Below, piece after piece: positions 13,449 to 47,082 of a stretch of DNA of 64,000 bases. The DNA is from Naegleria gruberi. Its lineage: Eukaryota. Each line of letters starts with the position of its first letter. Positions within the stretch are counted from its first letter, which is position 1. The notes beneath the pieces were generated by a model. The model did no database searches, was not told the DNA's origin, and saw only the letters and a program-made list of their open reading frames with translations. The translations under genes were made by a program, and so were the position numbers. The stretch is taken from NCBI GenBank assembly GCA_000004985.1, contig GG738866.1. One strand, 5' to 3'.

Positions 13449-16400
13449 ATGCCTGAAATTCTTGGTAGCACCACTGCTTCAAAGCAAGTGCTTGGTTTAA
13501 ACATTTCTCTATTGGTATGTTTCGCTTACTTTCGTTTTATTTATCAGAATCAAATTATCTTCCAACATCTCATTCACTTCTTCACATTCGCATTCAACTC
13601 CAACAATACTCAATAGAAAGGTGGTACTATCAGTCAAACAATTGTAAGTATATTCTCCTCCTCATAAAAACTTATTCTAATCTCAACAAACTATTCTAAT
13701 CTCCTTTTTTATAAACAACACAATTCAATTAATGAACACAGGTTGGTGCCATTATCACTTCTCTAGTGATTGCCTCCACCGTCGCAACCATCGTTCTCGT
13801 AACCACTGGTATTGGTTACTCTCCACCAGTTGCAGAACTTGACGTTGCATCCACATTCAAACGTGTTCCAGTTACAATCGACGTTCTTCACAATGATCGT
13901 GATCCACGTGGTGGTAATTTGACACTCACTCAAATTGTTTCTCCCCCTTCATTTGGTACAGCTCGTATTTTGTCTCAATCAAAGATTGTTTATCAATCGA
14001 GAGGTGCCTTTATGGGTAATGATTCGTTTAGTTATGAAGTTACTAATGGTTATGCTACTGCTAATGCGACTGTCAGAGTGTCAGTTGTCAATAGACCACC
14101 ACAAGCTGTGCCAATTTATAAAAAGATTTCAAAGAATGCGAACAAGGCATTGATTGATATCTTTAATTATATTGGTGATTCAGATGAAAAGATTTTTGAC
14201 ATTGACAATGATGAATTATTGGCAGTTTCATTTGGTGATCAACAAATTATTAGTGGAAATAGTCATATTGTTGGTTCAATTCAAGTTGATCCATATAATG
14301 GTTATTTGTATACTCCTGTTCCTAATTTTAACGGTATTGAAATGTTTAATTATACCATAACTGATGGAAATGACACTGATTCTTCCACAGTGACAGTTGA
14401 AGTTGACAATGATGCTCCAACTGCTGTTGATGATTATTTCAGAACTCCAAAGTATTCTGGTATCAAACTCAATGTTTTAGCCAATGATTATGATATTAAC
14501 AATGATGAAGTTAACATTACAAATGCCATTGGTGCTGGTTACGGAGCTACTCAAGTGTCAGAAAAGTCAATTTATTATTATACATCATCTGTATTGAATA
14601 CCAAGTATACTGATACTTTCGAGTATAGTATTACTGATGGTCAAAAAGAGGCATCAGCTATTGTTTTCATTGAAGTTTACAATAGGTAAGTTTTTAACTA
14701 TTTTTTGTAATTTTATTTAAAACCCATATATAGTGAGCCAATTGTTTATTCTAAAGTTGTTCAAGTTGCCAAGTCAAGTTCTAACAACACTATTACTGTA
14801 GATTATAACGACCCAGATCGTAAGGATTTAGTCACCGTTTCAAGAATTACACCTGTCTTGTCATCACTCAATCCACCTGCCAAATTAATGTTAGCTAAAA
14901 CTTATGAACAAGTCAGATTTGAATGTTGTGATTGGATCAAGGTTGAAACTAACAATTACACCATTGTTTTTGCTCCAACTCCTGGAATTGTTTACACTCA
15001 AACACTTGACATTGTCATGTCAGATGGTGAAAGTGAAGGAAATGGTAGAATTACCATTCAAGTTGTTAATACTCCACCTGTTGCTGTTGATGATCATGCT
15101 GAATGTAACAAGAATCAACAAATTTATGTTAACGTTGCTGCTAATGACTATGATGTCAATGAAGGTGATACTGCTCTTATTCAATTGTCAAATGTCAATT
15201 GGAATTCCAATACTGAACAAGGTGGTTCCATCACTCGTATCAACTCTACTCATGTACTTTATATTCCAAAGAAGAATTTCTTAGGAACTGACATTGCTCA
15301 ATATGTCATTACTGATCAAAGCAAAGACCAAAATGGAAATCCAGATTCCACAAGTTATTCAACTGGTAAATTAATTGTTCAAGTTGTTAATAATCCACCT
15401 ACTCCTGCTGATGATGAATTCACTATTTCTAAGGGTATTTCATCTGTTTTGAATGTTTTAGATAATGATTCTGATCCAAATGATGGATATGGATCTGTTT
15501 CTGTAATTAATTCTGTTAGTACAAGTTCTATTAAGAATATTTTGGCTAGTATTGTTAAGGGTTCTAAGGATATTCTTGAATATCTTGCTGTCAATGAAGA
15601 ATATGTTGATTTCTTGACATATGACGTTACTGATGCTGATGGTATGACATCTACTTATAAGGCAAATGTCAAACTTAATGTTGTCAATGATGCTCCTGTT
15701 GCTGAAAATGATGTCTATGAAACCAAGTGGAATAGATCTGTCTCTTGTTCTGTCAAGGATAATGACAAGGATATTAATGGTGACTTGTCAAAGTCAACAA
15801 TTTCAATTTCTAAAAATCCAACTCATGGTTCTGTTCAAGTTATTGGTGATTTGGTTACTTACACTCCTTACAATGGATTTGTTGGTTCTGATTCCTTCCA
15901 ATATACTCTTAATGATGGTAGCTCTGCAAATGCCGTGTCAAATGCTGCAACTGTCACTGTCAATGTCATTAACAATGCACCTGTCACTCAACAAGATACT
16001 GCCACCACTCACTGGAGAAACACAGATGGTGTCTTTATCAATCCATTATTAAATGACAGTGATCCAGACAATGATGAAATTGTTCTTTCCAGAACTAGCT
16101 CAACAGATGGCACTTCCTCATTGGTTTCTACCACCTTCCTCAAATTTATTCCAAATCAATCAACTCCTTCCACTGGTGATAAACAAGTTTCTTATACAGT
16201 TTCAGATTGGAATAAGGAAAGTGATGGAAAGATTATTGTAACCATTACAAATACTAAACCAATTGCAAGTGATGATCAATATACACTTCACTGGGCTGCT
16301 TCTGCAACTAATTTGAATGTTTTGGAGAATGATGCTGATCCAGATAGTGATCCAATTAGTTTGGGAAATGTCAAGGGTTCAACAGCAGCTGTCAAGAATG

Positions 16401-19400
16401 GAAATTCTGTCAGTTATACTCCAAAGAAGGATGGTAAGCAAGATACTTTCCAATATTCTGCATTTGATAGAGTTGATTACTCTACTGATGCAACTGTCAC
16501 TGTCAGTTTCACAAATAATGACAAGCCAGTTGCTTCTGACGTTTCCACTACTCTTCACTGGAGAGTTTTTGCTTCTCAATCCAATCAACAAGATTTCACA
16601 GTTTATTCCAAACAAACTGATTTCGATGGTGATAGTTTAACCCTATCTGTCACTGAAACTGCCAACTGTGCCAAGACAACTGACAGCATTGCCAAAGTCA
16701 GAGTTAAAGGTCCAAGCAACCAAGTTGGTACCTATTCCTGCTCATTCTCTGTTTCTGATGGCTTAGACACTTCTGGCATTAAAACAGCAAGTGTCAATGT
16801 CTATAATAATGCTCCAACATGTTCTGACATTGTCGTTGCTTTTAATCCACAATTTGTTGAAAGTGGTCAAACTTATTTATTGGGATCTTCTGTTTCTGAT
16901 GCTGATTCTAATGATTTCCCATTCCTTGCCCCAGTTGATCCAGCAGGTACCATTCAAACAGGTGACATTTTCAGAGTGGACTTGTCAGATGCCAAGAAAC
17001 TTTATTTTAAACCTAATACAAATACTGGTGACAGAAATTATCGTTATAAGGTCAGTGATGGAATTTCCAAATCTGCTGAATGTAACTTTAAGATTATTGT
17101 AAACTCTTTGGATTCTGGTGATTACAATCAAGCGTATGATGTTCATTGGAATTCAACAAATTTCCAAGTTCCAATTTTGGCGCCATTTGTTGGTAAGAGT
17201 ATTACTATAAAGAGTAAAAAGACAAATCCATCACAAGGACAAGCAACTGTTGATGCTGATAATCAAAAGGTTTATTTCACTCCTGCAAGAAAGTTGTACG
17301 TTGATAGTTTTGTAGTGGTTGTGACAGATGGCACTTTTGATAATGATGTGACAGTTACATTGTCAACATATAATACTAATCCAACTGCTTCTGTTCCAAC
17401 ACAAACTATGAATTGGGGAACTTCCAAGACCATCAATCTTTTACAAAATTATGCTGACAAGGATATGACAGATGGTTTCGAATCGATTGGTAAAATTAGT
17501 TCAGTTTCTTCTGCTGTTAAGGGAACTGTTTCACTTTCTGGTAATAACGCCATTTACACTGCTCCAGATCTTTACATTGGAAGTGATTCATTTACTGCAA
17601 CTGCCACTGATGGACTTGCCACTGTCACTTTTACTGTCAATATTAATTTAATTAATTCTGCTCCTATTGTTACTAATAAGGATATTTCAATCCATTGGTC
17701 TAAACATGCCGCTGGATATGCTATTGATTTGTCAACTGGTTCTTCAGATCCTGAAAATAATCCATTGACATTTGCTGTCAGCTCTGCAAGTATTTCACCA
17801 TCAAGTGCTGGAACAGTGACATTTAGTTCACCATCCAGTGGTGTTGTAAAGGCTGGCTCTTCTGTCTATCTTGGTAAATTCACATTCTCCTTCTCTGCAA
17901 GTGACAGATTAATTTCAACTCCTGGTTCTGTAGCTGTCACTGTAATTAATGACATGGCCACACCAATTGCTGATTCTGCTAATGTCCATTGGAGACAAAC
18001 TGGTGTAGAATTGAATCCTATCACTAAATATGAACCTACTTTGAAAGATACAGATGGTGATAGTTTGACAATTAGTGCTGTCAAAGCTCAGAAAGGAAGT
18101 GTCACAATTCACACATCAAAGACTGCCATTGTTTACAATGCTCCTTCAAATGCCATTGGACAAGATGTTGTTACTTATAGATTCACTGATGGTGCTCAAT
18201 CCCTTGAAGATTCCAGAACTGTCGTAAATGTCAATTTATATAACAATGCCCCTTCAGCTGTTGCTCAATCAGCTTCAACTAAATGGCATTTACCTGTCCA
18301 AGTTCCATTGACAAGTGCTTGTACAGATACAGATAGTTGGGATTCTAACTTTGTTACATTCAATGGTGCTGTTTCCAATATTATTGGTGGTTCAGTTTCA
18401 GTTTCTAATAGAATCGTCACCTTTACTCCATCCTTAACTCTTGCTCAATACACCAAATCAGGAGATGTTTACACTGGTACTGCCTCTTTCAATTTCCAAT
18501 GTACTGATGGTTTGGCAACAGCTGTCAACCCAGGTGTCGCAACCATCACTGTCACTAATAATGCTCCAACTGGAACAGGCAAATCTGTCACAATTCAAAG
18601 AGATTATACAAGAACTTCATATGATTTTGCATGGACAGACATGGCTACTTACTCAGATATTGATGGAAATTCTGTTTCCTTAATTAAATTCTCATCATCT
18701 GATTCAGCAATTTCAATTTCTACAATTGGAAATACTATTAGATTGACAACTCCAAGAGATGTCAGAGGTGTCAAGATAATTTCATTCAAATTATTTGATG
18801 GACTTCATGAAAGTACTAACGAATTGAAATTTACTGTTGAATTCCTTAATACTGCTCCAGTTTGTAAAGCTGCATCAGTGTCACTTGCCAAGAGACAATC
18901 ATATGACCTGTCACAATTATTCTCAGCAACTGATGTCAATAATGATGTATTGAGACATACTTTGAGTGGTGCTGTTCCAGCTGAATTTGGTTCAACTTCT
19001 GGAACTGTTTTCACAAGTGCTGCCAGTAGAAGTGGTGTGACAAGTGTCAGTTATACCACAACTGATGGACAAGATACAAGCTCACCTTGTGTAATTACCA
19101 TTACTATTACCAATAATGCACCAATCGCTCAAGACGCTGGTTACAGTTTCAAACCAGATCCTGCAAACTTGATTCACACTTTCACATACACTGCTACTGA
19201 TCCTGATGGTGACAGTTTGACATATTCTTCATCCAGTAATAATTGTGTTTCTGGTGCTTTGGCTACTACTCTTTCTATTTCATCATCTGGTGTTATCACT
19301 TTCAATAGAAAATCATCAGCTGTTGCTGGAGTTTGTACCATGTCAGTAACCGTAGTTGACAATAACAATCCAAGTGCTTCTGACACTGCAACTGTTACAT

Positions 19401-20699
19401 TTACCATCACTGCTACTCCACCAACTGCCAGAGATGATAGATTCCAAATTAATCAAGGTCAAACTATCAGAATTTTCACAAGTCAAATTTTGGCAAATGA
19501 CAATGACGAATATGGTTCAGCAACTTCCTTGACATTTGTTTCTTTCGAATGTCCAGCTGGTTACTGCCACAGTACTCCTAGATTAGTCACTTACAATGGT
19601 CAACAAGCTATTGAACTCGACTCTGATCAAAAGACCTGTCAAGCTGACAAATTCAAATACACAATGCGTACTAATTTGGGAGCTGAACGTCAAGCAGATG
19701 TTTTCATTGAATTCAAGAATTGTTACTGTGCTGCCAAGATTGACTTTGTCTTTTTATACGATTCATCTGGTTCCATTGGTGGAACAAACTTTAACAAAAT
19801 GAGAGATTTAGGTAAACGAATTATTGGAAGAATGCAACTTGCTGAAGATGCCATTAAGGTTTCAATTGTAAGATTCCATTCATCAGGTGTTAGAGCATTG
19901 TCTTTAACTTCTAATGGTGCTACTGTTAATAATACTTTTACCTCCATGACTGTAAGTAGTTTTTTAATAATTTTGTAAAGTATTTAATAATTTAATTTAA
20001 CAATACTAGTATGATGCTGGAAATACTGCAACTATTGCTGGTATGAGAATGGCTGTTGATGCTTTGAGACCTGCTAATGGTGGTAGAGCTGATGCTGATA
20101 AGGTTATTTATGGTATGTTTTTTTATTTGAAAACTTTACAATAATTTACAATTTCTTCTTTTATAGTGCTCACTGATGGTCTCGGTAACGTACCATGTAG
20201 TTGTTCTCAATGTGAAACTGAATGGTCATCCACTCCAAGTGTCTATCCAAAAACAGTTCAACAAGACATTCTCAATACTCTCTCAGGAACTTCAAGAACC
20301 AATGCTCTCCGTAATATGTGTGCTTACCAATTCTCTGATTCATCTGTATTGAATGGAAAAACATGTTCCTATTGTAGTGGTGGTAATGCTGCCTATTGTT
20401 TACCATGTGCTGATGCTGTTCCAATTGCCAAGAAGATTAATAGTTGGAAACGTGATGCTAATGGAATTGTTCCAAATGATCCTGATAATCCATATAATGG
20501 TAATAATAGAGTTCAATGGAAGGTTGTTGCTATGGCTGTTGGTAATGCCATGACTGATGTTTGGGGAGCTAGACAAATTCAAGGTATGAATTATGATGCT
20601 AGTAGAGCAATTACAGTCTCTTGGACTGATTTGTCATCTACAATGAGTGAAATTGTCGATCAATCTTGTAATCAAGTCAATGTTGAAACTGCTCAATAA
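13449..20699 (+). CDS. Giant adhesin-like protein (about 2260 aa): N-terminal hydrophobic anchor, about 20 tandem 95-100-aa cadherin/VCBS-like repeats, C-terminal VWA domain and Cys-rich tail
   Basis: Exon structure: exon 13742-14685; intron 14686-14733 (GTAAGT..TAG, contains an in-frame stop); exon 14734-19951; intron 19952-20009; exon 20010-20112; intron 20113-20166 (GTATGT..TAG); exon 20167-20699. A tentative first exon 13449-13514 (MPEILGSTTASKQVLGLNISLL, donor GTATGT) is uncertain. Repeat motifs V.NNAP.A.DD…N.L.ND.D.DGD…YTP..F.G.D.F.Y…DG; VWA signature DFVFLYDSSGSIGG. Confidence 0.8.
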
Positions 20700-22352: not shown

Positions 22353-25300
22353 TTATCTAATATACATGTTTGCTTTTGTAACTCCATAATCTGGTACTGG
22401 GAATGTATAAGCCTTGAAAATGTTTGTAACACCACCTACTATACTACCACAATAACTTGTAATGGCTCCACTCTTTGTAGTTGGTCCTCCCAATGAACAT
22501 GTATCAGTACCATAATTACAAGGGCTACCATCTTCAACACGATACAATTCAGTGTCTAATAAGGATGATGCCAATGTTTTACAAACAAAAGAACCACCTG
22601 TTGATAAGGTAGAAATTGAGGCAAGACCATAGTATCCAGTTGGATCTCTCCAAAGAATATCAGAGGAAACATTTCTCAATGCTCCCCACTTGTCATCAGA
22701 GACTGAATAACCATATACATCAACCTTGACATAATCATTCGTTGCTAATGGAATGGCTATATTATTAGTGGTGGTTCTTGATGAAACCAAAGCCCAACCA
22801 CCTCCAAGGTACTCCATATCACAATAAACCTTAAACTTATTCATTGTATCTAATGGTTTCACCCAATAAACACCACTGGCAGCAGATGGAATCAAATCCT
22901 TGTATTCACGACATGACCTCAACACGTTACCAATAAAATAGGCACTATCAAGTGTTTGAAGAGCAATAACAACGCCTGTTGTAGTTGGCACGTATGGCTT
23001 AGTTTCATTGGCGAAATAAATTGAATGAATACTGATTGGAACATTAGGATTAGTTTTTAAAAAGTTTTGAGGTAAATCAACGGAGAATAAATTGAGCTTA
23101 TTGTTTAGAATCAATGTAGAGGTAATACCCATAGTTGGCATTGGTAATTTTTGATTGATATCTTCCCATACTAGAGGATTGCTCTTGAGAGCTCTAGAAA
23201 TTCCCTTCAATTCAGAATAAGTTGGACTAAAACCACCAGTCATGTACAAGTAAGTGTCATCACTAAACAGATTACTTTCTGTGTAAGGGTGAGGAAGAAC
23301 TCTATAACTATTTTGCCAAATCATCTCAGAAGCAGAGGCATACAAAATGTCAGAATTGAGAGCAAGTCTACCAACTCTACCCCCAAAAAGATAAATATTG
23401 TCGCCAATGACTTGAGCAACACCATTATAGATTGCTCTTGGTAGAACCTTTGAAACCTCTTCCCAAATCAATAGGTCGTTTAAATGACATCTCATCACTT
23501 TATATGTTGGGATTGTTGTTCCTCTATCATCTGTTAACCCACCAAAAATGTACAAGTACTCGTCAACAATTGCTAACATTCCTGAGGCAACAGGGTAGGG
23601 TAAAGTTTGATTAAAAATCTGAATAGAGTCAACTGATGTTTTAAGAGCAATTCTATTCGAAACAACATTATTCACAACACCACCAAAGTAAAAAACAGCA
23701 CCGTCCTTTGTAAAGTCGTGGGTATTACAGAAAGAGAAGGCAGCAAACATTTCGTAGGTTGTTTTTGCAATATTCACACTCATATCTGATTTACCAACCA
23801 TAATCATGTCCATATTATCATTAGAAAGGGAGATGAAGTTATTCTCAGAATAGACAATTCTAAGAGAAGACAAATCAAATACTGGAAACACCTTCTCGTA
23901 AGGAACAATGTAAGCGATTGAAAAGATGAATGCCTTAGTATAATAGTTTCTAAACCCAGAATATCCACTGCTAAAGAATGGAACTGAAAATTTACCACCA
24001 GCATAAAATCCCATCTCTCTGTCTTTGTTGTAAGCCAAGATGGCTGATTCTTTCATGATGTGAATTTCATGGACATAATCAAAGCCTGGAGGAGAAAGCA
24101 GAGAATCTGGTGCATACTGTGTTCCGCACCCTTTTCTGCCATAACTTGACCAACTGTAATCGTACCAATAATTAAATCTAGCAAGGCCAAGATTGCAAAC
24201 ATTGTCATCATTTCTACCCCATGCCCATATTGTTTGATCATCTGCCAAGGCAAATGCTTGTTCATTCTTGTGGAATAGCTTGACAATCTTTCTCGACCCA
24301 ATGTTGGTGGTAGAAATTGCAGATGGATTTATGGTTGAAGAACTGACGTCTGTTCCCAACTGACCATTATAATTATATCCCCAACCAAATACACGTCCAG
24401 TATCTAACAGAGCAAGAGTGGATGAATCACCACATTGAAAGTCGATAATACTTGAAGAAAAGTACACAAAAAAGTCAGAGGTAAAATTTGTTGGAGTGCA
24501 CTGAGAAATAACAAAGGTTCCGTTGACCTTTCCCAAGTTATCGTAGGTATATCTGACGTACGAAGAAGTTGGAATACTGTAACTGTCTATTCCTTCACTA
24601 TTCCTTCTTTGCCCCTATTTATAATTGTAAATTAACACATCAATTTGATAACATACCCAATAATACATTACACCTGAAGTGGTTCTTCCAACAGCATGGC
24701 TTTTGCCAAAACAAATCTTGGTAAACTTTAAGGTGTTAGAAATTTTAACAGGTGAAGAAGAAACTGCAGTAGAGCCAGTTCCTAGTTGACATTCAGATCC
24801 TCTTCCCCAACTAAAAGCATAGCCATCACTGTCAAGGTACACTGAATTATATGGTCCAGCATTGATAAAAGTAATGGTATTGGAATGACTCTTGATCTTG
24901 ACAGGATAGGTAACAACACCTTGATAACCAGCTCCAACTTCTCCATTGGCGTTTGTTCCCTGAAATTTCAATGAATAAATATATATAAAACAAAAATGTA
25001 AAAAGGCATGTAAGAACATAAAAACAAAGAATACAAACCCATGAATAGATAGCCCTATTGGTCAATATGAGTACATGTTGTTGACCACATGCAACTTGCT
25101 TAATGTACTCATCAGAGTCGAGAGGTAAATCAACTCGTCCAGGAGCTGGAGTAGCAGGAATTCTTCCCAACGTTGTGGTTCCCCAAGAATAAAGCACTCT
25201 GGTGGCTGGATCTAGGTGGATTCCAAAAGCATCTCCAGTGCACATGAACATTCTCTCCCTTGGTGGTTCAACCTTGGGAGATCTGAAATAAATTGATGTC

Positions 25301-26019
25301 GAATTGGCATTAAAGTAGGTCAGCTTTCCACTCACAAGTGGTGTTGTGAATGGTATTGGATTAATGGTCGAGTTCATCGTCTTCTCTAAACCATTTAATA
25401 AGGATACGGCAGATTTGTACTTTCCATTCAAGTAAAAATCCATTGCAACGTTAACAATAACATTATCAGATTTAGTAACTGTCAAGGTTTGAAGCTGTTG
25501 TAAATTTCTAGTCATGGCCCTTGTGATTCCCGCCTGACTGACAAAAGTTAAGGGTGTCTGATATGTGGAGTTTGAATTTGTTGAAACATTTGAATTTAGT
25601 GCAATAGAGGCGGTGGATATGGCTCTGTATTGTGCTCTAGCAAGTTGTTGTTGTTTCTGGACAGTGTCTGTGTAATTCTGAAGCAGTGCCCTTCTCTGCG
25701 CTGCATAGTCTCTAGCAATCCTTCTATCCCTAAGGAATTGAATATATTCCATTGAGGTGGAAGCAGAATAAACTACACCACTCTCAAAAGAGAGCATTAA
25801 AAATACAAATAGAATACATGTGAAAATATAAACCAATGAACGAATAGTGTATCGTTCTTGTTGTCGGTAAGGGAGCATGTTGGAAACGTTTAAGGTCTTT
25901 GAATTCATTTTAGATAACAATCCTTGCTCACTAATGAAGGATGTTGTTCTTCCACAGTAGCAGTTACCAGTAGTAACAAGAGATTTATCGCCTTTCAGTG
26001 GAAGCTGATCTTTAAACAT
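22353..26019 (-). CDS. Type-II membrane protein (about 1180 aa) with RCC1-like repeats, Kelch repeats and a C-terminal fibrinogen-related domain
   Basis: Three exons: 26019-25039, 24959-24657, 24614-22353. Introns 25038-24960 (79 bp, GTTTGT..CAG) and 24656-24615 (42 bp, GTATGT..TAG) restore the frame. TM helix SLVYIFTCILFVFLMLSF near the N-terminus; RCC1 motifs (WG.N..GQLG); Kelch-like LYIFGG and IYLFGG; fibrinogen-like VYWVKP…FKVYCDMEYLGGGWALVSSR. Confidence 0.7.
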
Positions 26020-26865
26020 TTTTTTAATAGGAAGTGGTGTGATTTCTTCATTAGATAACGTTGCTTGTGCTAACGCACAAATTAAGGCGCTCTATTTAGA
26101 ATGTGGGTACTCTTTTTTTCTCAGTAATTGAGAGCCGTAATCAACAGTGCAAACACCAACTGCCATAATGGCTTGTAATGTCGCGCTCAATGGTCGAGTA
26201 TTGTTGTATACATTCAGCATCATCTGAGAACAATAAATTAATATAATATAAAAATAATAATAACAATTACAGGTATTGAGGGAGCCATTAGTATCTCAAT
26301 TATCATTTTCCATTTCATGAAGTTTCACATTATTGTACATTGATAAGTGAGAGTTTACAGTTTGTAAGGAACATGGATTGATCAAAGAATCTTGTGTTCA
26401 GAGTTAAGAACTAGGGATATCGACATAATGGTTTTGCAATACTCTCTCAATGAGCAACACATGTTTGTATTTTCTTATTCTCCACAGGTGAATGTTCCTA
26501 GCAGCCTTGTTCGTCAAATTGGACAATATCAATTATCTCTCGCCCTTATTATTAGACTATAAATTAATTTTTTGAAAATTGTGTTTGAAAAACCGTAAAG
26601 TCAGTTTGATGAACTAAATATTTCTAATAAGCACTTGGAACTTAAGCGTCATAGATCAAAATGACACTCAAACACAAAATTGAAGTAATTTGTCACTGAT
26701 ACTTTGTGACTGGTGATGGGTTGGTTCGGATTAGTTGCATCTTTCGATATGCGCATAACCTATGCTAACTATTTTCTTCCAAACATGCTCATAGTTAAAC
26801 ATGAAGAAACGATTTCATCACATGCAGATGATGGAAGTTATTCGAAATCTAAACAACAAAAAAAT

Positions 26866-29800
26866 ATGAAGTTCGAAAGGTGTAACATGTTGGGACACGC
26901 AAGTCTCGTGTTATTTCATCTCATCACCTTGTTACTACTACTTTCGAATAGTAACAACAAGTTTATTCACGGAGCAGTGTCATGGAAACAACCAGACTAT
27001 CGAATCACCACAGTCAATCCTCTACAAGTATCAACAAATCCTGAAGGTAACAAACTATACGATTTCAAAACAAATGCTCCCTATGCTATTGATTTTGACG
27101 CACAAGATAACATGTACATTCTCGATTATTCAAAGTGGGTCCTAAAGGTCAATACAAGTAGTGGTACTATAAAAACATTAATGGGAGTTGCTGTAGGTAC
27201 AGAATCTGATGTGGATGGTGTTGATGGAACAACAGTACCTGTTGGATACTTTAAAGACATGTCAGTCAATCCAAAGAGTGGTGAAGTTTATCTTGTGGGA
27301 AACATGAAATTGAAGAAAATTAACACCAATGGTAAAATTTCCAACTATAATGTCAATAATTTTGATGTTACCAATATCTATGGAGATGGTGGAATGGCAA
27401 TCAATTCAAAAGTTTCGGATAATGTTGAAAGTGTTACAGTCAATTCGAAAGAAGAAATTATCTTTTCTGATAAGAACAGAATAAGAAAGATTTTTAATAA
27501 TGGCACCATAACCACAGTAGCTGGTACTGGTTCTCCTAGTGACTCACTCATGAACACTCCAAAGGGTGTATGCACCGATTTATCAAATAACATTATCTTT
27601 ATTGATTGGGGAACGAATAGAATTAAGAAAATTTCAGCAATTGATGGATCAATTTCTGTAGTGGCTGGTAAACTTAATCAAGTCGGTACTTTTCCTGCAG
27701 ATAAATCACTTGCCAATAACACAGCCATTACTCCAGTGAGCATTGCAGTGCATCCTGTGAGTGGTGAACTGTATTTTGCAACAATGTATACTATTTCAAA
27801 AATTGGCTCTGATGGATTGATTTACAGAATTGCAGGAAATGGTTCAATTGGAGTGGATAATACTGTACAAGCAGCCACTAATGCCATGCTTTCTTCAATT
27901 ATTCACATTTCTATTGGAAAGAATTCAGTCTTGTACATGATTGATGGTTTTCGTGTGAGACAAATTTCATCCAATGTTATCACCACACTATTAACTGAGA
28001 GTTCAACTTTCCCTCCTAAATTTGTCTATCATTACAACAGTTATGTTTACTATACAGTGTCATGTCAGATATTGAAATTCCCAGACAATAATCCTTCTGT
28101 TGTTACTACCATTCTTGGATTGAGAGGAACTTGTGTTCAATTTTTTGGTGTTAAGAGACAAGTTGATATGACTCAAAATTACCTCTCCTTTGATGCAATG
28201 ACAGCATTCACAATGTCAGCTTCAACAGGAAGAATGTACTTTTCAAATCCAAGAAGAATGTGGAACATTACAGATGGCTACATTTATCCAATGGTTTACA
28301 ATTATGGTGAGAATATTGATATTAAGGATGGTCTCATTGAAAATGACGCCTCGTCTTGCTTTGATAATTCTGGAAATTTAATTCTTGGAGATAATTTTAG
28401 ATTGAGAAAGTTGAATACAACCTCTCATATAGTCAACTCAATTATTGGTAATGAAAGTCCAATGGTGCCATTTGCTTGTACTGTTGCTCCTAATGGAGAC
28501 ATTTACTTTAAAGATAATCAAGCCATTAAGAAATTGGATGCTTCAACCGGTTTGACAACAACTTTAGATACTGTACTAGCAGATCACAGATCCCGCAATT
28601 ACAAAATCAAGTTATTGCCTTCTGGTGCTTTGATTTATACCGATTTACAATATGTCATTGCTTATTACAACAATCAAAAGACTACTATTGCTGGAAGTGT
28701 AGCCACTGGTCCATTTTCTGGAGAGGGTGGAAGGGCTGTTGATGTTGTTCAAAATGCTTTCCTTGTTGGTTTGACTGCTAACAGTAAGGGTGAAATCTTC
28801 TACTCTGACGAGACTGCCTATATCAGAAAATTAACACCATACTGTAGTGATACTTCAACCTATTTGGATTCAACGGGTACTAAATGTTTGGTTTCCTCAT
28901 GTTTTGGAGTTGATTATAATATTAATTCAGTTTGTTCAGGACATGGTAAATGTGTTTCGAATGATGTTTGTAAATGTAATGATGGCTACTCTGGATTAAA
29001 TTGTGAAAAGTTCACATGTTTTGGCTTGAACAATACAGATCCAAAGGTATGCTCAGGAAATGGAACTTGTGTCGATATTGATTACTGTTCATGTACTTCT
29101 GGTTATCAACCAGAATGTAAAGGTTACGTTTGTTTCGGTTATCCAATGGACAATTTTAAGGTCTGCTCCTCTCATGGAAAATGTATTGGCAATGATAAGT
29201 GTGAATGCGACCCAACTTACAATGGAACCAAGTGTGAAAATTACTATTGCTTTGGTTTATCTGCATCTGATCCTAATGTTTGTAATGGAAATGGAAAGTG
29301 TATAGAAACTGACACTTGTTCTTGCTCATTTGGCTTCCAACCAAATTGTTATGCTCACAAATGTTCAGGAAAGGTCTACAATGACTCATCAGTTTGTTCC
29401 TCAAGTGGTAAATGTGTTGCCGAAAATACATGCATATGTACTAATGGTACCAATGGACCTAATTGTGAATTCCTCTCACTCTTATTGGATATCCAAGGAA
29501 GACCAACTCTCAAAACTGTTGCGAGAATATTCACATTGCTAGGTAATCCTGTCGATAATTGTGCCACTATTTTTGCAAGCAAAGAATTGTCCTATCTTGG
29601 AAATGATCCAATTTGTAAATTTTCAGCTAGTGGTCTGGAAATTATTTTGGGATCTGGTTTCTCAATTGATAATGGAACTTTCTTGCCAACTCAATCATTT
29701 GACGGATGGAAGTATGATTTTAGAGTACAGGCTGGATCTGTTTGTGGTAGCTATGCTCAAACTTCCTTAACTCTCGATTTTAGTTCTCAAACAAACTCTT

Positions 29801-32800
29801 TGCAAAATTTGAATTCGGACACCATTTTGAGAATATCTGAAACTGATTATTCTCAATCATTTGGAAGAAGTATTTCATGGACAGGTCCTTCTGATTTAGT
29901 TCCTCTCGTTTCTCCAAATCAAAAGGTTGTGATCATTCCTAAAGGTTATTGGAAACCAGGAAATAATCTCCCTGTTACAGTCTCCACCAAGACTTCTCTG
30001 TGTGGAACCAATTCGAATAGTAGAACATTTACATTCAAGACTGATTCTACCGCTCCATCCATTGACATCATGACAGACACTCCTTCTGGTAAATTGAATT
30101 GTGTGGGTTATGATTGTTTATTTGAATTTTCTCTTTCACCTGCAGGATCATACTCTGCACAGATCAAATTTGATGGAGATTATTCATTGATTACCTCAAT
30201 TTCTTCAATTCCAAATTTACAAATTGCCAGATTATCAAACTATTATGACAGCACCACTTACTTGGGTGTTAAATATTATGGAACGGTCAATTTACAATTG
30301 CTGTTCAATTCAGTTATTTATTCTTCTACATATCCTATGCAGTATTTGGCATATGAAAGCTCTCAATTATTTATTAATAACTTGAACAGAGGTTTTAGAA
30401 AGGATCAATCTGAATTGACCTTTAGTTTGGTTTCTCAAAATCCGTTACTTCTCACGGTCAATCCAGGAGCTCTTCCAATCACTTACAATTGGACCATCTC
30501 AAGCGGAAACAAAATTATTGGACCATTCTATACCAATTCAATCAGTATTCCTAATCCAGGTGTTGGAAATTATTCTCTTTCACTTCAGGTCAATAACAAT
30601 GATGAATTTAGTGAAACCATTACTGGTACCTTCTCTGTTTTTGACACAGTTGGCGCAATTCCAGATGTTTCAGTAGATAGCTTTACCAATCCATATCCTT
30701 TTATCAAGACTCTTGATTTGACAGCTACTGTAAACTCTACAACATCTGTCAGTCAAATTTATTGGAATGTAATTTCAGGTTCCTTCTACAACTCACCTGT
30801 TCTATCAAACTTTGCATTTTCCCAAAATAATATCAAGACAAGTCTATCCATTCCTGTTTCCTATCTCAAGGAGGGTTCTAATTACGTTTTCGAACTCAGA
30901 GTGACCAACTCTGTTGGAACTAATATTCAAAGATTCAATGTAAAGATGGATTACAATCCTCGTTTCACATGTGATTATTTCACCAGCTACAATTCTTCTC
31001 AATTGAAGGTATATGAATCCAAATTGATAATTTCATGTAGTTCTTTTGAAAATAATATGGCATCATATGTCGTTGATTTGTTTGATGGAGATGTAAAGTT
31101 AATGACCTTGTCAAATACTGCTAAGAGTAGTGTTATTGCTAGATTACCTTATTCTTTGAATGCATTATCATTGAATGTGAGAGGAATTAATAGAAATGGA
31201 TCTTACAGAAAGGTTGTAAAATCAATTACTGGTCCTTTCCTTAATTTCCCTTCTTCTGATCTTTCTGCTAGAGTTTCGTATGTTTCCCAGCAATGGACAA
31301 GTGTGAAAGCTGAGAATATCAAGATGGATACTGCTTCCTCTATTTTATCATTATTGACCTATCTTCAAAATGGTAAACAAACATTCGATGATTTATCAGG
31401 ATTGAGTGATTCATCTAAGCAAACCTTGACAACTGTCATGGTTGAAATGATCTCTGCTTTAAAGTCTATTACAACAATTGGTTATCGTGCTGATGATAAG
31501 ATTTCTGCTGTTCTCCTCTCACCTACCCTTAGAGTTGTCAAACTGGTAAAGACCATCCTGCCAACTGTCTACTCCAATCAAAAGTCCGATATTCAATACT
31601 TGACTAGTTTTATTGTAAAGGGTGTTGAATCTGTGACTTCTTATTATTCAGCTAATATGGTCAGAGCATTGGTTGATGGATTAACCTTCAATGAAACTGT
31701 CTCCCTTGTACAAAATGCTTACTCCTCAGCCGCCACTAGTGGATTATTGGGTCAATTGACCAGATTACAACTCATTCTCAAGCCAGATTTTTCACCATTG
31801 AATTCTGTTTCCTATCAATCACCTCAGGAAATAAGTGGTAAAACAATCACATTGGGAGCTTCCATCTCATTCACATTCCCTTCAAACTTTTACTCACAAA
31901 TTTCCTCATCGGTTCCATTTAGTTTGATCAGCTCTCAGGAACAATCCAATTCCGATGCTTCATCAGCTACTGTAAGCATTTCTCTTTTCAAATCCGATGG
32001 TTCAGCATTTAAGGTTCAAGGATTGACAAGCTTTATTGAAATTGTCTTTGCTGACTTGGTTTTCAAGAGCGAAAATGTTAGTTGTGTCTATTTTGATGAA
32101 GTTTCGAATGCTTGGAGTAGGGATGGATTGATTACTACTCTTGTCAAGAAACAAACAGGTGGATTTAATGTCAAATGTGAAACTAATCACTTGACAGCTT
32201 TCTCTGTTGTTGTCAATGATGCAATCACACCAGTTCAACCAACTCAATCGCCAGCAAAGAGTGGCACCACTACTACAACTACTGACAATACATTGGCTAT
32301 TGTTCTGGGTGTGGTCATTCCTTCTGTTGTGATTATTGCAGCAATTGTCACAGTCATCATTGTTGTAGCAATTGTTTGCATGAGAAAGAAGAAGAAAGGA
32401 CAGTCAACAAATCAACCTAAGCTTACCAAACTTGACAGTGTCTATGAACAACCTAACATATCTGCTTATGAACATTCAAAACCTCATGACATTTTGACAG
32501 ATACTGAACTTTCTGTCATGTCTGATTTCCCATCAAACAATAGCATGTTAATCAAACCATTAATGAGTGTTTACACAAGCACTGGTTCAACATCAAGCAC
32601 TTCTTCTAAATTTGATCCAATGTCCAGATATAAGAATCTTGTTAGAATTGGTCAAGGCGGTTTTGGAAGTGTTTTCAAAGCAGAAGATGCCAAGTGTGGA
32701 AATCAACTCAAAGCCCTCAAAGTTATCAAATATTCATCAGTGGAAGAATTGAACAACATTTTGAAGGAAGGAAATCGTTTAATGAACATTTCACATCCAT

Positions 32801-33417
32801 ACATTCTCCATGTGAATGATGTCTTGATTGACTCTGATCAAATCCTATGTATTGATATGGACTATTATGAAAAGGGAGATTTAAATCAATTTGTAAAGGT
32901 TGGTTCTGAATGCCCTGAAAATATTCTCAAACAAATTCTCTATCAAATGTGTAATGCTCTCGATTATGTTCACAACACTTTACAAATTGTTCACAGAGAT
33001 ATCAAACCATCGAATATTTTCATTAAGGAAATGTCTCAAGATAGTATTCATTTGATTTTAGCAGATTTTGGATTGGCTAGACAAACTCAAGGAAGTGTCA
33101 TGTTTTCCTATGCAGGAACTCCATTGTTCATGTCAACTGAGTTAGCTCTCGGTGGTAAATATACTGCCAATACTGATATTTATTCATTGGGTGTGACATT
33201 GTATCAAATTATTACAAAGGATGTAGAAACTTCATTGTCTCACATATCGCTCACTATGGATACAGCCGAATTTGAAAAGACTATTAGAAATAAGATGAAA
33301 CAAGCCAACCCTGCACTTTCGGATGAATTATTGGACATTATTGTGAGCATGTTGAAGAGAGATTATGCCACAAGACCTTATCCAAAGGATATTCTCTCCA
33401 ATTCCTACTTCCAATAA
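26866..33417 (+). CDS. Receptor-like Ser/Thr protein kinase (about 2180 aa): signal peptide, NHL-repeat beta-propeller, tenascin-type EGF repeats, long ectodomain ending in a GPS-like motif, single TM, cytoplasmic kinase
   Basis: Single ORF (track 26713-33417; likely start is the AAAAATATG at 26866, giving the signal peptide MKFERCNMLGHASLVLFHLITLLLLLS). EGF-like Cys spacing CSGHGKCVSNDVCKCNDGYSGLNCE repeated about 6 times; C.YFDE..N.WSRDG…VKCETNHLTAFSVV just before the TM (VVIPSVVIIAAIVTVIIVVAIV); kinase motifs GQGGFGSVF, HRDIKPSN, DFGLAR. Confidence 0.85.
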   Translation: MKFERCNMLGHASLVLFHLITLLLLLSNSNNKFIHGAVSWKQPDYRITTVNPLQVSTNPEGNKLYDFKTNAPYAIDFDAQDNMYILDYSKWVLKVNTSSGTIKTLMGVAVGTESDVDGVDGTTVPVGYFKDMSVNPKSGEVYLVGNMKLKKINTNGKISNYNVNNFDVTNIYGDGGMAINSKVSDNVESVTVNSKEEIIFSDKNRIRKIFNNGTITTVAGTGSPSDSLMNTPKGVCTDLSNNIIFIDWGTNRIKKISAIDGSISVVAGKLNQVGTFPADKSLANNTAITPVSIAVHPVSGELYFATMYTISKIGSDGLIYRIAGNGSIGVDNTVQAATNAMLSSIIHISIGKNSVLYMIDGFRVRQISSNVITTLLTESSTFPPKFVYHYNSYVYYTVSCQILKFPDNNPSVVTTILGLRGTCVQFFGVKRQVDMTQNYLSFDAMTAFTMSASTGRMYFSNPRRMWNITDGYIYPMVYNYGENIDIKDGLIENDASSCFDNSGNLILGDNFRLRKLNTTSHIVNSIIGNESPMVPFACTVAPNGDIYFKDNQAIKKLDASTGLTTTLDTVLADHRSRNYKIKLLPSGALIYTDLQYVIAYYNNQKTTIAGSVATGPFSGEGGRAVDVVQNAFLVGLTANSKGEIFYSDETAYIRKLTPYCSDTSTYLDSTGTKCLVSSCFGVDYNINSVCSGHGKCVSNDVCKCNDGYSGLNCEKFTCFGLNNTDPKVCSGNGTCVDIDYCSCTSGYQPECKGYVCFGYPMDNFKVCSSHGKCIGNDKCECDPTYNGTKCENYYCFGLSASDPNVCNGNGKCIETDTCSCSFGFQPNCYAHKCSGKVYNDSSVCSSSGKCVAENTCICTNGTNGPNCEFLSLLLDIQGRPTLKTVARIFTLLGNPVDNCATIFASKELSYLGNDPICKFSASGLEIILGSGFSIDNGTFLPTQSFDGWKYDFRVQAGSVCGSYAQTSLTLDFSSQTNSLQNLNSDTILRISETDYSQSFGRSISWTGPSDLVPLVSPNQKVVIIPKGYWKPGNNLPVTVSTKTSLCGTNSNSRTFTFKTDSTAPSIDIMTDTPSGKLNCVGYDCLFEFSLSPAGSYSAQIKFDGDYSLITSISSIPNLQIARLSNYYDSTTYLGVKYYGTVNLQLLFNSVIYSSTYPMQYLAYESSQLFINNLNRGFRKDQSELTFSLVSQNPLLLTVNPGALPITYNWTISSGNKIIGPFYTNSISIPNPGVGNYSLSLQVNNNDEFSETITGTFSVFDTVGAIPDVSVDSFTNPYPFIKTLDLTATVNSTTSVSQIYWNVISGSFYNSPVLSNFAFSQNNIKTSLSIPVSYLKEGSNYVFELRVTNSVGTNIQRFNVKMDYNPRFTCDYFTSYNSSQLKVYESKLIISCSSFENNMASYVVDLFDGDVKLMTLSNTAKSSVIARLPYSLNALSLNVRGINRNGSYRKVVKSITGPFLNFPSSDLSARVSYVSQQWTSVKAENIKMDTASSILSLLTYLQNGKQTFDDLSGLSDSSKQTLTTVMVEMISALKSITTIGYRADDKISAVLLSPTLRVVKLVKTILPTVYSNQKSDIQYLTSFIVKGVESVTSYYSANMVRALVDGLTFNETVSLVQNAYSSAATSGLLGQLTRLQLILKPDFSPLNSVSYQSPQEISGKTITLGASISFTFPSNFYSQISSSVPFSLISSQEQSNSDASSATVSISLFKSDGSAFKVQGLTSFIEIVFADLVFKSENVSCVYFDEVSNAWSRDGLITTLVKKQTGGFNVKCETNHLTAFSVVVNDAITPVQPTQSPAKSGTTTTTTDNTLAIVLGVVIPSVVIIAAIVTVIIVVAIVCMRKKKKGQSTNQPKLTKLDSVYEQPNISAYEHSKPHDILTDTELSVMSDFPSNNSMLIKPLMSVYTSTGSTSSTSSKFDPMSRYKNLVRIGQGGFGSVFKAEDAKCGNQLKALKVIKYSSVEELNNILKEGNRLMNISHPYILHVNDVLIDSDQILCIDMDYYEKGDLNQFVKVGSECPENILKQILYQMCNALDYVHNTLQIVHRDIKPSNIFIKEMSQDSIHLILADFGLARQTQGSVMFSYAGTPLFMSTELALGGKYTANTDIYSLGVTLYQIITKDVETSLSHISLTMDTAEFEKTIRNKMKQANPALSDELLDIIVSMLKRDYATRPYPKDILSNSYFQ

Positions 33418-44067: not shown

Positions 44068-47000
44068 TTATTTGCTCACATAAGAAATTATATCAGCATA
44101 AGACATGGTAACAGGCAAAGTCTTGTCTTCCGTCAATTTCTTCAAGAATGTTCTGTGGAAATCATTGAAAAGTACCTTCTTGAATTTTTCATTGTTTGAA
44201 GTTTCATTAATAGCATTGGCAATTCTGACTGGCATTTCTGACTTGAGTTGAACTCTGAAAAGTTCGCACAAATCAAAAACTTTGGTAAGGAGAGCATCAT
44301 CAGAGTATGGCACTTCGCTTGGTTCTTCTTGTAAAGAGAATTTGTTAAAGTTCAAATCATGAATCAAGTCAAAGAACTTTTCTCTATCACCATCCCATTG
44401 CTTCTTACCTAACCAAATGTAGATAGCAACACCATCACAGAGCAAGTAAACACCATCGTCTGGATTAATGAGCTTTCTGGAGAGAGGTTCTAATTTGAGA
44501 ACCTTTGGCTTATCATTTTCTTGTTCGGCCGATTCTTCAGCAAGTAATTGTGAAACATTAATCATGAGTGGGTGAACCATCAATGTAGATTGTTGAATAG
44601 AACATGATGAGAAGAATAAAGAAGCAGCACTTCTACCATCAGCTCTAACTTCCTTACCACCAATAAGCATGGCAGACTTTGAAAGTCCACAAATGAAAAG
44701 AGGTAAGTATTGAAGAGCTGTAGGCATGACAATTCCCATACTTCCAACATTGGCAACAGTCTTATATCCAGCAACAGCTCCCTTAAGCCACTTATCAATG
44801 AGAATGTTCTTGGAATTGGTAATACCTTCCTTTGGTAAATCTGCAGCCAAAATCTTACCCATCAAATTAGTTAAACAAGTAGTTTGAGTACTATTATAGA
44901 GAACAGACAATGAAGTAGTAATTGGAAGAAGAAGGTTACAAACACGAATCTTTCTTTGACCTTGATCAGAAGTGTACAATACAGCAACTTGAACGCTGAC
45001 ATTAGGAGTAGAAAGCATTGCACCAGTGTGAACCATTTGGAAACCAAAAGTTTGAGTACCAGAAATGTTTGGTAAAGCCATCAAGTCGTGACCTCTAATG
45101 AAGAAGTTACCAAAGAAGTTAACAATCTTCATACCACTGCTCACTCTAATTCTCATAACACTTTCAAATCCTGTAATTTCTTCAATGATATTTTGTTTCA
45201 AATCAGAAGCCAATTGATGAGATAATTGATCTGGATATTCGTACAATTTACACCAACCACCAGTAAATTTAGAAAGATTGGAAATGGTGGAAATGTCCAA
45301 GAAGGAGTTACGTGATTCTGGAATTGAATAACAATACAAGTCAATACAAATTTGATCCTTATTGAAGAGGAGAGCAAAATCTCTATAGCTTTGATCAGCT
45401 GGTTGGAGTAATTTGGCTTCAGCCTTTTCATTACCGTAATCGTTCAAATTTTCACGATTGGTGAGTTTGTTTGGTCCAATAGTTGGCAATTGAGAAAGGA
45501 AGATGGAAACCTTTCCTCCAAATCTACCGATCAATCTACCAGCAGCATTCAAAGCAGATCCCAAACAACATTCAGCATTGGTTGATCCCTTAAACATCAA
45601 TTCCAATTTGTCCAATAAAATTTCAACTAAATGATAGCTTTCTTCCAAGTTGACGAGCAAATCGTTAGGAAGTGGTAAGAGAGATTCATTCAATTCACCA
45701 ACAACTAATTGCTGAGGATTTGAGAGTGTTGGTCTCAAATTGAAAAAGTGAATCTTGGTATCAAAACAGAGAATTCCAACCATGGTTCTTGGTGATTTTT
45801 CTTTCAATTCCTTCAAACAATTCTTGATAGCCTTAACAGCACTTTGGAAAAGTCCTCCATTAATACTATGGAAACTGGTATCAATCAAGAATAAGTATGC
45901 TGGTGGTTGAGGTGGACGAGACATGTATTCTTGTGGTGCCAAATATTCATAAACACCATTGACAAGTTCAGGTCTCTCGAAAAAGTCTTGTCTAACACCA
46001 TTATTATCAGTTGGGCTATAGTATCTCTTTGGAACTTCATTGATATTCTTACAAACGTTACATTGCCACTTGTTTCCGTATTCGATAAATTGAACAAATG
46101 GATTGATATAAGTTCTACAATTGTTACAACGAACAATAAAGTTTCCTCCAATGGTTGGTACTTCCTTTTGATAGAATGGATTTAAAACACAACCAAATGG
46201 TAAGCCATATCTGTTCAAAAGTTCTAAACTTTGTGGAACAGCATTACAACTCATTTTCATTGTGTTTTCATCACTTTGCAGGAATTTAAAAACTTCACTT
46301 GCTGGTCTATTTTCAGTGGATCCATATTTTTCTCTGAAAAGATTATAATGTGCTTGATAGAGAGGAGCAACATCAGGTTGTCCAGAAACATGAGAGGTAA
46401 GTAACTCGGCAGCATCCTTTGGTTGAGGCATATTATTTGGAGGTACAATTTGAACAAAAGGTTGTTGGTTTTGTTGTTGATTTAAAGTTAGTGTTCCCAT
46501 GTGAGAAATAACATCTTGAACCATGAAATTATGTCCTTGTTCAAAGGCTGATTCAGATTGAACACTTGATCCTTGAAGAGCAGATCCTGAAATTCCAACA
46601 CTTGGAGGTGGAGGTTGAACAACACCTGTAGTTGGTGGTTGGTGATGAGATTGTCCTACTGCACCATGTACATTCTCTCCAAATTTAAGTTCTGTTGGTG
46701 GTGGACCAACTGGCTTTGATAAAGCAGAAGTAGTAGGATTGAAAAAGCTGTTTCCGGTTGGAGGAGGTGGAAGGCTTGATCCAAATGTATTTGTTGTTGT
46801 TGGAATGGTAGAACTCGGATCATAAAAACCACTACTTGTTCCTGTCGATGGTTGATAAGAAGATGAAGAAGAAACAGGATTATAAAAACCGTAGCCTGTT
46901 GTTGGAGTGGATGGAGAGGAAAATCCTCCAACACTAGAACCTCCCATCATCATACCACCTGAAGTAGTAGGTGTAGTTGTTGTTGTTGTATTGGTACCAT

Positions 47001-47082
47001 AATTTCCGTATGGATTTGAAGTAGTTGTCTGAGATGGTTGATTCGTAGAGGTAGCTTGGAGAGGATTATAAAAGTTGTTCAT
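44068..47082 (-). CDS. SEC24: COPII coat component Sec24
   Basis: 1004-aa ORF; Pro/Gly/Thr-rich N-terminus; Sec23/24 zinc finger [34 protein letters not shown]; trunk, helical and gelsolin-like regions. Confidence 0.85.
   Translation of the reverse strand: [1004 protein letters not shown]

Follow-up and report, generated by a model that had tools for sequence, protein, structure and literature searches.

Fibrinogen-related domains (FReDs) are generally regarded as having arisen in animals, where they function in recognition and clotting. A locus in a 64,000-nucleotide stretch of Naegleria gruberi DNA (NCBI GenBank assembly GCA_000004985.1, contig GG738866.1; this whole stretch is hereafter the window) raises the question of whether one gene of a free-living amoeboflagellate can join a domain of this kind to two types of beta-propeller and, if so, what sort of fibrinogen relative it carries and what the protein would do. 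The initial annotation had described here, at 22353–26019, a type II membrane protein combining RCC1 repeats, Kelch-like blades and a fibrinogen-related C-terminal domain. We found that the locus is, as judged by its translation, one N. gruberi gene of three exons with its stop at 22353, and that the C-terminal domain is a compact relative of fibrinogen domains with its closest full-length relatives in bacteria and in N. gruberi itself. On balance we favour an account in which this gene probably encodes a secretory-pathway protein with two propellers and a ligand-binding fibrinogen-like head that would serve in surface recognition.

A three-exon gene encoding two propellers

On the minus strand, the frame that begins at the ATG at 26019 stays open to the TAA at 22355–22353 only after two segments have been removed, and the product after both splices is 1181 amino acids (aa) long. 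Exon 1 (25039–26019; aa 1–327), open from its ATG, encodes an N-terminal tail, a hydrophobic segment, an R/Q/A-rich stalk and the first RCC1 repeats. Intron 1 (24960–25038; 79 bp, GTTTGT...TTTCAG) shifts the frame by one; no other GT..AG pair joins frames 0 and 1 without bringing in a stop. Exon 2 (24657–24959; aa 328–428) holds further RCC1 repeats and is followed by intron 2 (24615–24656; 42 bp, GTATGT...AAATAG), which ends in an in-frame TAG. Exon 3 (22353–24614; aa 429–1181 plus the TAA) encodes the last RCC1 repeats, a Kelch propeller and the C-terminal fibrinogen-like domain. The RCC1 repeat motifs are restored by both splices, and translation reproduced exactly the coordinates and sizes that had been proposed for the three exons and their introns of 79 and 42 bp. 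That the exons form a single gene is borne out by an N. gruberi paralogue, NAEGRDRAFT_73810 (XP_002671279.1, P0355, 1109 aa), which has the same order of parts from the tail to a compact fibrinogen-like C-terminal domain and is 40% identical to, and colinear with, aa 56–1150 of the window protein. The paralogue, an uncharacterised predicted protein as well, differs in its shorter stalk and in being without the 17-aa insert NYWYDYSWSSYGRKG.

The RCC1-like propeller region (24099–25257; aa ~255–600) spans both introns. Over aa ~275–600 the Pfam RCC1 profiles used (PF00415, PF13540 and PF25390) scored above their curated thresholds, with WD40_RLD at 152 bits (E 3.5e-44; cut-off 150), RCC1 at 99 bits (E 2.3e-28; cut-off 21.7) and RCC1_2 at 87.2 bits (E 4.3e-25; cut-off 22), and six WG motifs can be read from the sequence between aa 285 and 560 (YSWG twice, FSWG, YYWG, FGWG and WAWG). 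The best database relatives of this region are long bacterial proteins carrying PF09479, PF00746 or PF18962, which we take to be cell-surface or sorting domains; such relatives fit an extracellular use of the propeller. The adjoining Kelch-type region (22947–24098; aa ~601–984) matched Kelch_6 at 33.9 bits against a gathering score of 25.3, Kelch_KLHDC2 spans its aa 733–937, and its predicted fold matches solved Kelch domains. Four blades are modelled confidently (aa 727–925; predicted local distance difference test score, pLDDT, 80–92), with the GG motifs FYFGG, YIFGG, YLFGG and YMTGG. Both repeat types named by the initial annotation were thereby recovered from profiles. Upstream of them, the R/Q/A-rich stalk (aa ~85–250) matched no Pfam family.

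A compact fibrinogen-like domain and its family

The end domain (22356–22946, minus strand; aa ~985–1181) closes with ...ANMYIR directly before the stop. Its NEC/A-subdomain core (22785–22916; aa 995–1038), with the motif YCDxxxxGGGW, contains the profile matches, and the peptide that had been quoted as evidence for a fibrinogen-related domain, FKVYCDMEYLGGGWALVSSR, was found at aa 1022–1041. NCBIfam NF040941 (GGGWT_bact) scored 58.3 bits against a cut-off of 30, with aa 995–1038 covering model positions 1–46. Pfam Fibrinogen_C (PF00147) reached 26.7 bits against a gathering score of 22, over only aa 1005–1042, corresponding to positions 13–50 of a 221-position profile; RCC1, Kelch and Fibrinogen_C are thus all above threshold in this protein, the last of them in part only. 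The best sequence match in the PDB was intelectin-1 (E 3.4e-6, ~50 residues). C996, C1026 and G1033-G1034-W1035 are invariant in the family alignment, and four of the six cysteines in the end domain occupy invariant or near-invariant family columns.

In the predicted structure, the NEC core consists of a helix (aa 996–1002) followed by three strands, and the last strand of the domain has a pLDDT of ~90. The model has the overall FReD fold, and its structural neighbours are lectins; Foldseek agreed at a probability of 1.0, but with template modelling scores (TM-scores) of only 0.35–0.42. As modelled, the end domain is of the fibrinogen/intelectin/COLFI fold class over roughly its first three quarters. 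The family profile aligned with PDB FReD sequences over positions ~11–70 and at most to 95–97, and hhalign matched 52 columns of fibrinogen gamma C, a comparison that serves as a lead only. The claim of a fibrinogen-related C-terminal domain therefore stands as to fold class and to a Fibrinogen_C score above threshold, but not as to a canonical metazoan type, since only the first ~45–55 residues align. Canonical FReDs carry P-subdomain motifs of the form DxDxD...NCA....GGWW...C, in a region that holds the Ca2+ loop and the ligand pocket in ficolins and fibrinogen gamma; neither the family profile nor hhalign aligned such a motif with the window domain. Where this subdomain would lie (aa ~1120–1170), the family has a conserved pattern of its own, H.E..GC...G.DYC...C, which we conjecture may be a reduced ligand loop.

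We then followed the family in an exhaustive phmmer/HMMER search with the C-terminal domain against 1.84 billion representatives. It returned 758 matches, most of them to the NEC module alone and often many times over in giant proteins, and the whole ~190-aa domain was present in 35 of the 275 fetched proteins that matched the family profile. In 21 of these 35 full-length carriers, the domain ends at most 3 residues from the protein C-terminus, at Y[VIL][RK]. The window domain is 27–39% identical over its full length to nine members (alignment A1), and when ten members were tested with Pfam, the Fibrinogen_C match covered positions 2–56 in most and reached 86 at most. The closest full-length relatives are bacterial and N. 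gruberi proteins: members include five N. gruberi proteins with the window gene among them, one protein on a Naegleria-like contig, and proteins of aquatic gammaproteobacteria (Aeromonas, Pseudoalteromonas, Photobacterium, Hahella and Gallaecimonas), some of which are fused to RbmA-like FnIII or discoidin domains. Three of the N. gruberi paralogues are short (361–370 aa): behind a signal peptide comes a helical region, to which EGF may be added, and then the compact domain. The contig (L001; Logan SRR26902795_1167, 2665 bp, 34% GC) carries a gene at 338–1246 whose 302-aa product joins a compact fibrinogen-like domain to a signal peptide and helical region, and the contig probably derives from another Naegleria-like organism; a kinase gene lies 41 bp away on its other strand.

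In a neighbour-joining (NJ) tree of 29 full-length domains, the five N. gruberi copies and the contig's copy were monophyletic in 82 of 100 bootstraps, and all the other domains were bacterial or metagenomic. Because the Naegleria copies group together, the tree points to one acquisition or one ancestral copy, probably followed by duplication and domain shuffling. Among the matches listed there was no N. fowleri protein with a fibrinogen-like domain, which does not prove its absence, and tblastn found no paralogue of any part of the gene elsewhere in the 64-kb window. We also considered a canonical metazoan FReD acquired from animals and rejected it, the full-length relatives being bacterial and nothing aligning beyond the NEC part. 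Ten proteins of cnidarian, bacterial and protist origin, annotated as angiopoietin, collagen or intelectin, also matched Fibrinogen_C in its NEC part only and so could not supply a reference alignment of canonical FReDs. Two further proteins, of 4035 aa from an IMG metagenome (P0087) and of 3103 aa from a Phalansterium solitarium transcriptome (P0088), each contained 12–14 separate YCDxxxxGGGW/NEC matches; judged by these sequences, the NEC module is massively repeated in some organisms, including an amoebozoan.

The compact ~190-aa fibrinogen relative is thus a family of its own in aquatic gammaproteobacteria and a free-living amoeboflagellate, of which curated models catch only the first ~46–55 residues. 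Relative to curated knowledge, what is new at this locus is a corrected gene model and the recognition that its fibrinogen match is the NEC-led part of a distinct compact domain family, together with the observation that RCC1, Kelch and fibrinogen-like parts were combined in only two proteins in our searches, with relevance to FReD evolution and to amoebal prey recognition.

Proposed role, rival readings and genomic setting

In the mechanism that we propose, the 1181-aa product would enter the secretory pathway via its single N-terminal hydrophobic segment. Outward from this segment would follow the R/Q/A-rich stalk, the RCC1-type propeller, whose closest relatives appear to be bacterial cell-surface RCC1 proteins, the Kelch propeller, and the ~190-aa disulfide-containing end domain of predicted fibrinogen/intelectin fold. 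The end domain is a compact variant whose position is always C-terminal: it pairs an NEC/A-subdomain bearing YCDxxxxGGGW with a B-like sheet, and a short Cys-rich loop region (consensus H.E..GC...G.DYC) takes the place of a recognisable P-subdomain. The two propellers would act as spacer and interaction surfaces, the distal disulfide-bonded head would bind a ligand, probably a glycan, and the whole protein would work at the surface in adhesion to, or recognition of, bacterial prey, matrix or other cells. We infer a secretory or extracellular protein from the hydrophobic segment with its positive flank, the six cysteines of the end domain, the signal peptides of the three short paralogues and the surface domains that accompany the RCC1 relatives. 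The end domain is most likely a ligand-binding head, probably for glycans, because its structural neighbours are lectins, matrix- or carbohydrate-associated domains accompany it in its bacterial relatives, the short paralogues are laid out as a coiled region and a head in the manner of ficolins and angiopoietins, and Naegleria is a bacterivore. A glycan- or prey-binding role at the surface is plausible. To our knowledge, phagocytic recognition in Naegleria is poorly defined in molecular terms; if the domain binds glycans, the window protein and its four N. gruberi paralogues are candidate receptors or agglutinins for bacterial prey.

Several observations weigh against this account. A protein database search with the gene product gave no transcript-derived match. 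About 190 aa of the Kelch region (aa 596–726 and 925–985) have pLDDT values below 50, and aa 1141–1171 of the end domain are modelled with low confidence. Sequence likeness to real lectins ends after ~55 residues, and in Pfam, a PDB profile search and hhalign none of the Ca2+ or ligand-site motifs that mark ficolins, fibrinogen gamma or intelectin was recognisable. N-glycosylation sequons are not enriched in the ectodomain (10 observed against 12.3 ± 3.1 in shuffles). The window copy also departs from the family consensus in its putative loop (R for H at 1120, S for G at 1125, T for Y at 1133, with one cysteine shifted by one), and because these positions are otherwise well conserved, it may bind differently or not at all.

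The nature of the N-terminus decides between an anchored and a secreted product. The sole hydrophobic segment (25783–25839, minus strand; aa 61–79, LVYIFTCILFVFLMLSFES) reaches 2.23 in a 19-residue Kyte-Doolittle window and is flanked by three K/R and one D/E on its N-terminal side and by no K/R on its C-terminal side. The earlier description as a type II membrane protein holds for this single N-terminal segment with its positive N-terminal flank, but the type II assignment hinges on the start codon: the segment would be a signal anchor if translation starts at M1, and the core of a signal peptide if it starts at M48, which lies 13 residues upstream of the hydrophobic core. With either start, everything downstream of aa 61–79 is predicted to face the lumen or the outside. 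A start at M48 followed by cleavage of the signal peptide would give a soluble matrix, cyst-wall or agglutinin-type protein. M48 is the start of the public model, the paralogue NAEGRDRAFT_73810 likewise has a Met (M42) just ahead of its hydrophobic core, the three short N. gruberi paralogues are plainly secreted and biofilm-matrix proteins are among the bacterial relatives, so that we give a secreted product some weight, yet hold it to be doubtful. Against it, the 47 codons upstream of M48 are open (chance ~0.03 at 35% GC, by our rough estimate), a tail of ~46 aa is also kept in the paralogue's public model, and the A-rich context of M1 at ATG 26019, AAAAAAATGTTT, is identical to the start context of the adjoining gene, whereas that of M48 is TCCAACATG. 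The open upstream codons and the A-rich context lead us mildly to favour M1, and with it the anchored product. The end domain could instead serve in assembly or oligomerisation, in the way of the NEC-containing C-propeptide of fibrillar collagens, with the propellers as the functional surfaces; we consider this improbable and keep to a binding head. As to origin, the Naegleria lineage may have obtained the compact domain from aquatic gammaproteobacteria, or may share with them an ancient domain that predates metazoan FReDs, and may then have duplicated it and grafted one copy onto a membrane-anchored double-propeller stalk, yielding a receptor for prey or microbes in phagocytosis. We regard this full scenario as speculative and rather unlikely; if true, it would be a protist counterpart of ficolin/intelectin-type recognition, assembled independently of animals.

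The public record reads the gene differently. Its entry for the locus (XP_002677562.1 / EFC44818.1 / UniProt D2VE43 / NAEGRDRAFT_48803, 'predicted protein [Naegleria gruberi]'; P0001), for which Pfam matches are already precomputed, is identical to the 1181-aa product wherever the two models overlap. It begins at M48, removes 12 extra residues at intron 1 and 38 at intron 2, and splices out the last 29 residues and the stop, so that ...SYCGSI is joined to KKMFKK... of a downstream open reading frame (ORF). This ORF is an RGS-domain gene of 503 aa on the same strand (ATG 22287, stop 20776). Were the public model right, a third intron, running from a GTAGGT donor at ~22443 (after ...CGSI) to a TTTCAG acceptor at ~22297, would yield a 1561-aa RCC1-Kelch-fibrinogen-RGS protein. 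In its favour, the intron has acceptable GT..AG signals, the RGS ATG follows the stop at 22353 after only 65 bp, and one protist protein (P0029) also joins RCC1 ectodomains to a C-terminal RGS domain. The proposed intron, however, would remove the last 29 aa of the end domain, including its confidently modelled C-terminal strand, and the N. gruberi paralogues and most bacterial members conserve both this strand and the Y[VIL][RK]-stop ending; NAEGRDRAFT_73810 ends in ...ANIYLK, without an RGS domain. The public model also deletes two segments, VLILTNRAIYSW and GQRRNSEGIDSY...VISQ, that are kept by the three-exon model and conserved in this paralogue, where their counterparts are HALVLTNKAIYGWG and YYWGRRGNNGVDRYVIPTTT..., and the 38 aa deleted downstream of intron 2 align with it. 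A fusion would place no membrane segment between an extracellular-type domain and a cytosolic RGS domain (the RGS protein has no hydrophobic segment, with a hydropathy maximum of 0.67), whereas P0029 has hydrophobic stretches, read from its sequence, between its EGF repeats and RGS. Finally, the RGS ORF begins with an ATG of its own, which, like M1, stands in the context AAAAAAATGTTT, and both genes open with AAAAAAATGTTTAAA. Because of the paralogue, the conserved domain C-terminus and the RGS protein's own ATG, we prefer the three-exon model as the better of the two, and the fusion, which we consider very improbable, is best read as an annotation artefact. On this reading the RefSeq/UniProt entry would be a chimera of two genes with two mis-called introns, which puts a spurious RCC1-Kelch-fibrinogen-RGS architecture into domain databases. 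P0029 itself (EukProt, 1681 aa) has two RCC1 propellers, many EGF repeats, several hydrophobic stretches and a C-terminal RGS domain, which suggests that some protists use extracellular RCC1 propellers as the ectodomains of receptors linked to G-protein regulation.

The gene lies ~21–25 kb from the end of an N. gruberi scaffold. The window has ~35% GC and starts with (CCCAAA)n telomere-type repeats, which form two blocks (1 to ~400 and 1006–1387); between them lie a 50-N gap (956–1005) and ~550 bp of sequence that is unique and AT-rich. Positions 1–1387 resemble a scaffold end that contains either an interstitial telomeric block or a join made during assembly. Over the first 2 kb of the window, the GC skew is −0.63. 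The divergent neighbour (26713–33417, plus strand) is a single 2234-aa ORF that combines a teneurin-like NHL region and many EGF repeats of teneurin type with a transmembrane region and, at its C-terminus, a protein kinase domain (Pkinase E 6.5e-48); it resembles a giant receptor kinase. This subtelomeric window has further very long single ORFs at 14858–19978 (plus strand, 1706 aa), 44068–47082 (minus strand, 1004 aa) and 51657–55751 (minus strand, 1364 aa).

Comparison with known systems

The initial annotation had called the combination of RCC1, Kelch and fibrinogen-like domains unusual, and our searches agree: the arrangement was seen only twice, both times in N. gruberi, in the window gene and in NAEGRDRAFT_73810. 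For these searches, the Kelch and C-terminal parts (aa 601–1181) were compared by word index with 5.8 billion protein clusters, which gave only five weak matches, and the C-terminal domain was used in the exhaustive HMMER search, in which alone the family surfaced. In the library searched, we found no literature on Naegleria with fibrinogen, on non-animal fibrinogen-related domains, on fibrinogen-like domains in connection with RbmA or Pseudoalteromonas, or on the locus tags and accessions. As for relatives in related taxa, the N. fowleri protein FDP41_001832 (XP_044563475.1, P0356) follows the arrangement only in part: it has an RCC1 propeller and then a related Kelch region, with weak likeness (phmmer 46 bits, in the Kelch part), and ends in EGF repeats with no fibrinogen-like domain.

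The nearest known counterparts of the end domain are NF040941 proteins such as Aeromonas WP_210601529.1 (222 aa) and the Pseudoalteromonas 'RbmA family biofilm matrix protein' entries (P0236 and P0237), with which the whole ~190-aa domain aligns at 25–32% identity, although the curated NF040941 model spans only a 46-aa motif. They share with the window domain the invariant cysteines, GGGW, a DDKW-like motif, E..GC...G.D, the extreme C-terminal position and the terminal Y[VIL]R. They differ in that they are secreted by bacteria and have, beside the domain, either just a signal peptide or partners of the RbmA-like FnIII or discoidin kind, and none has propellers. With intelectin-1 (4wmq) and with fibrinogen-related lectins and ligands, namely ficolin-3 (2j5z), FGL1 (7tz2), fibrinogen beta/gamma (3ghg) and ANGPTL3 (6eua), only ~45–55 residues align, or ~95 for a few chains. 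The window domain is ~30 aa shorter than the 221-position FReD and ~90 aa shorter than intelectin, and it does not have the intelectin-specific C-terminal half of the ~280-aa X-type lectins, with its Ca2+-coordinated binding of exocyclic diols.

Pradel et al. (2004, PMC2211786) defined the NEC module from its occurrence in CCp/LCCL adhesion proteins of apicomplexans, in neurexins, in fibrillar collagens and in fibrinogens. The module is common to fibrinogens, fibrillar collagen C-propeptides, ficolin and intelectin, occurs in extracellular multidomain proteins of protists and has been proposed to bind sugars (PMC2211786). The window domain has the same ~45-aa disulfide-stabilised helix and three strands; unlike a stand-alone NEC module, it goes on for ~140 more residues that are conserved in the family and continue the FReD-like fold.

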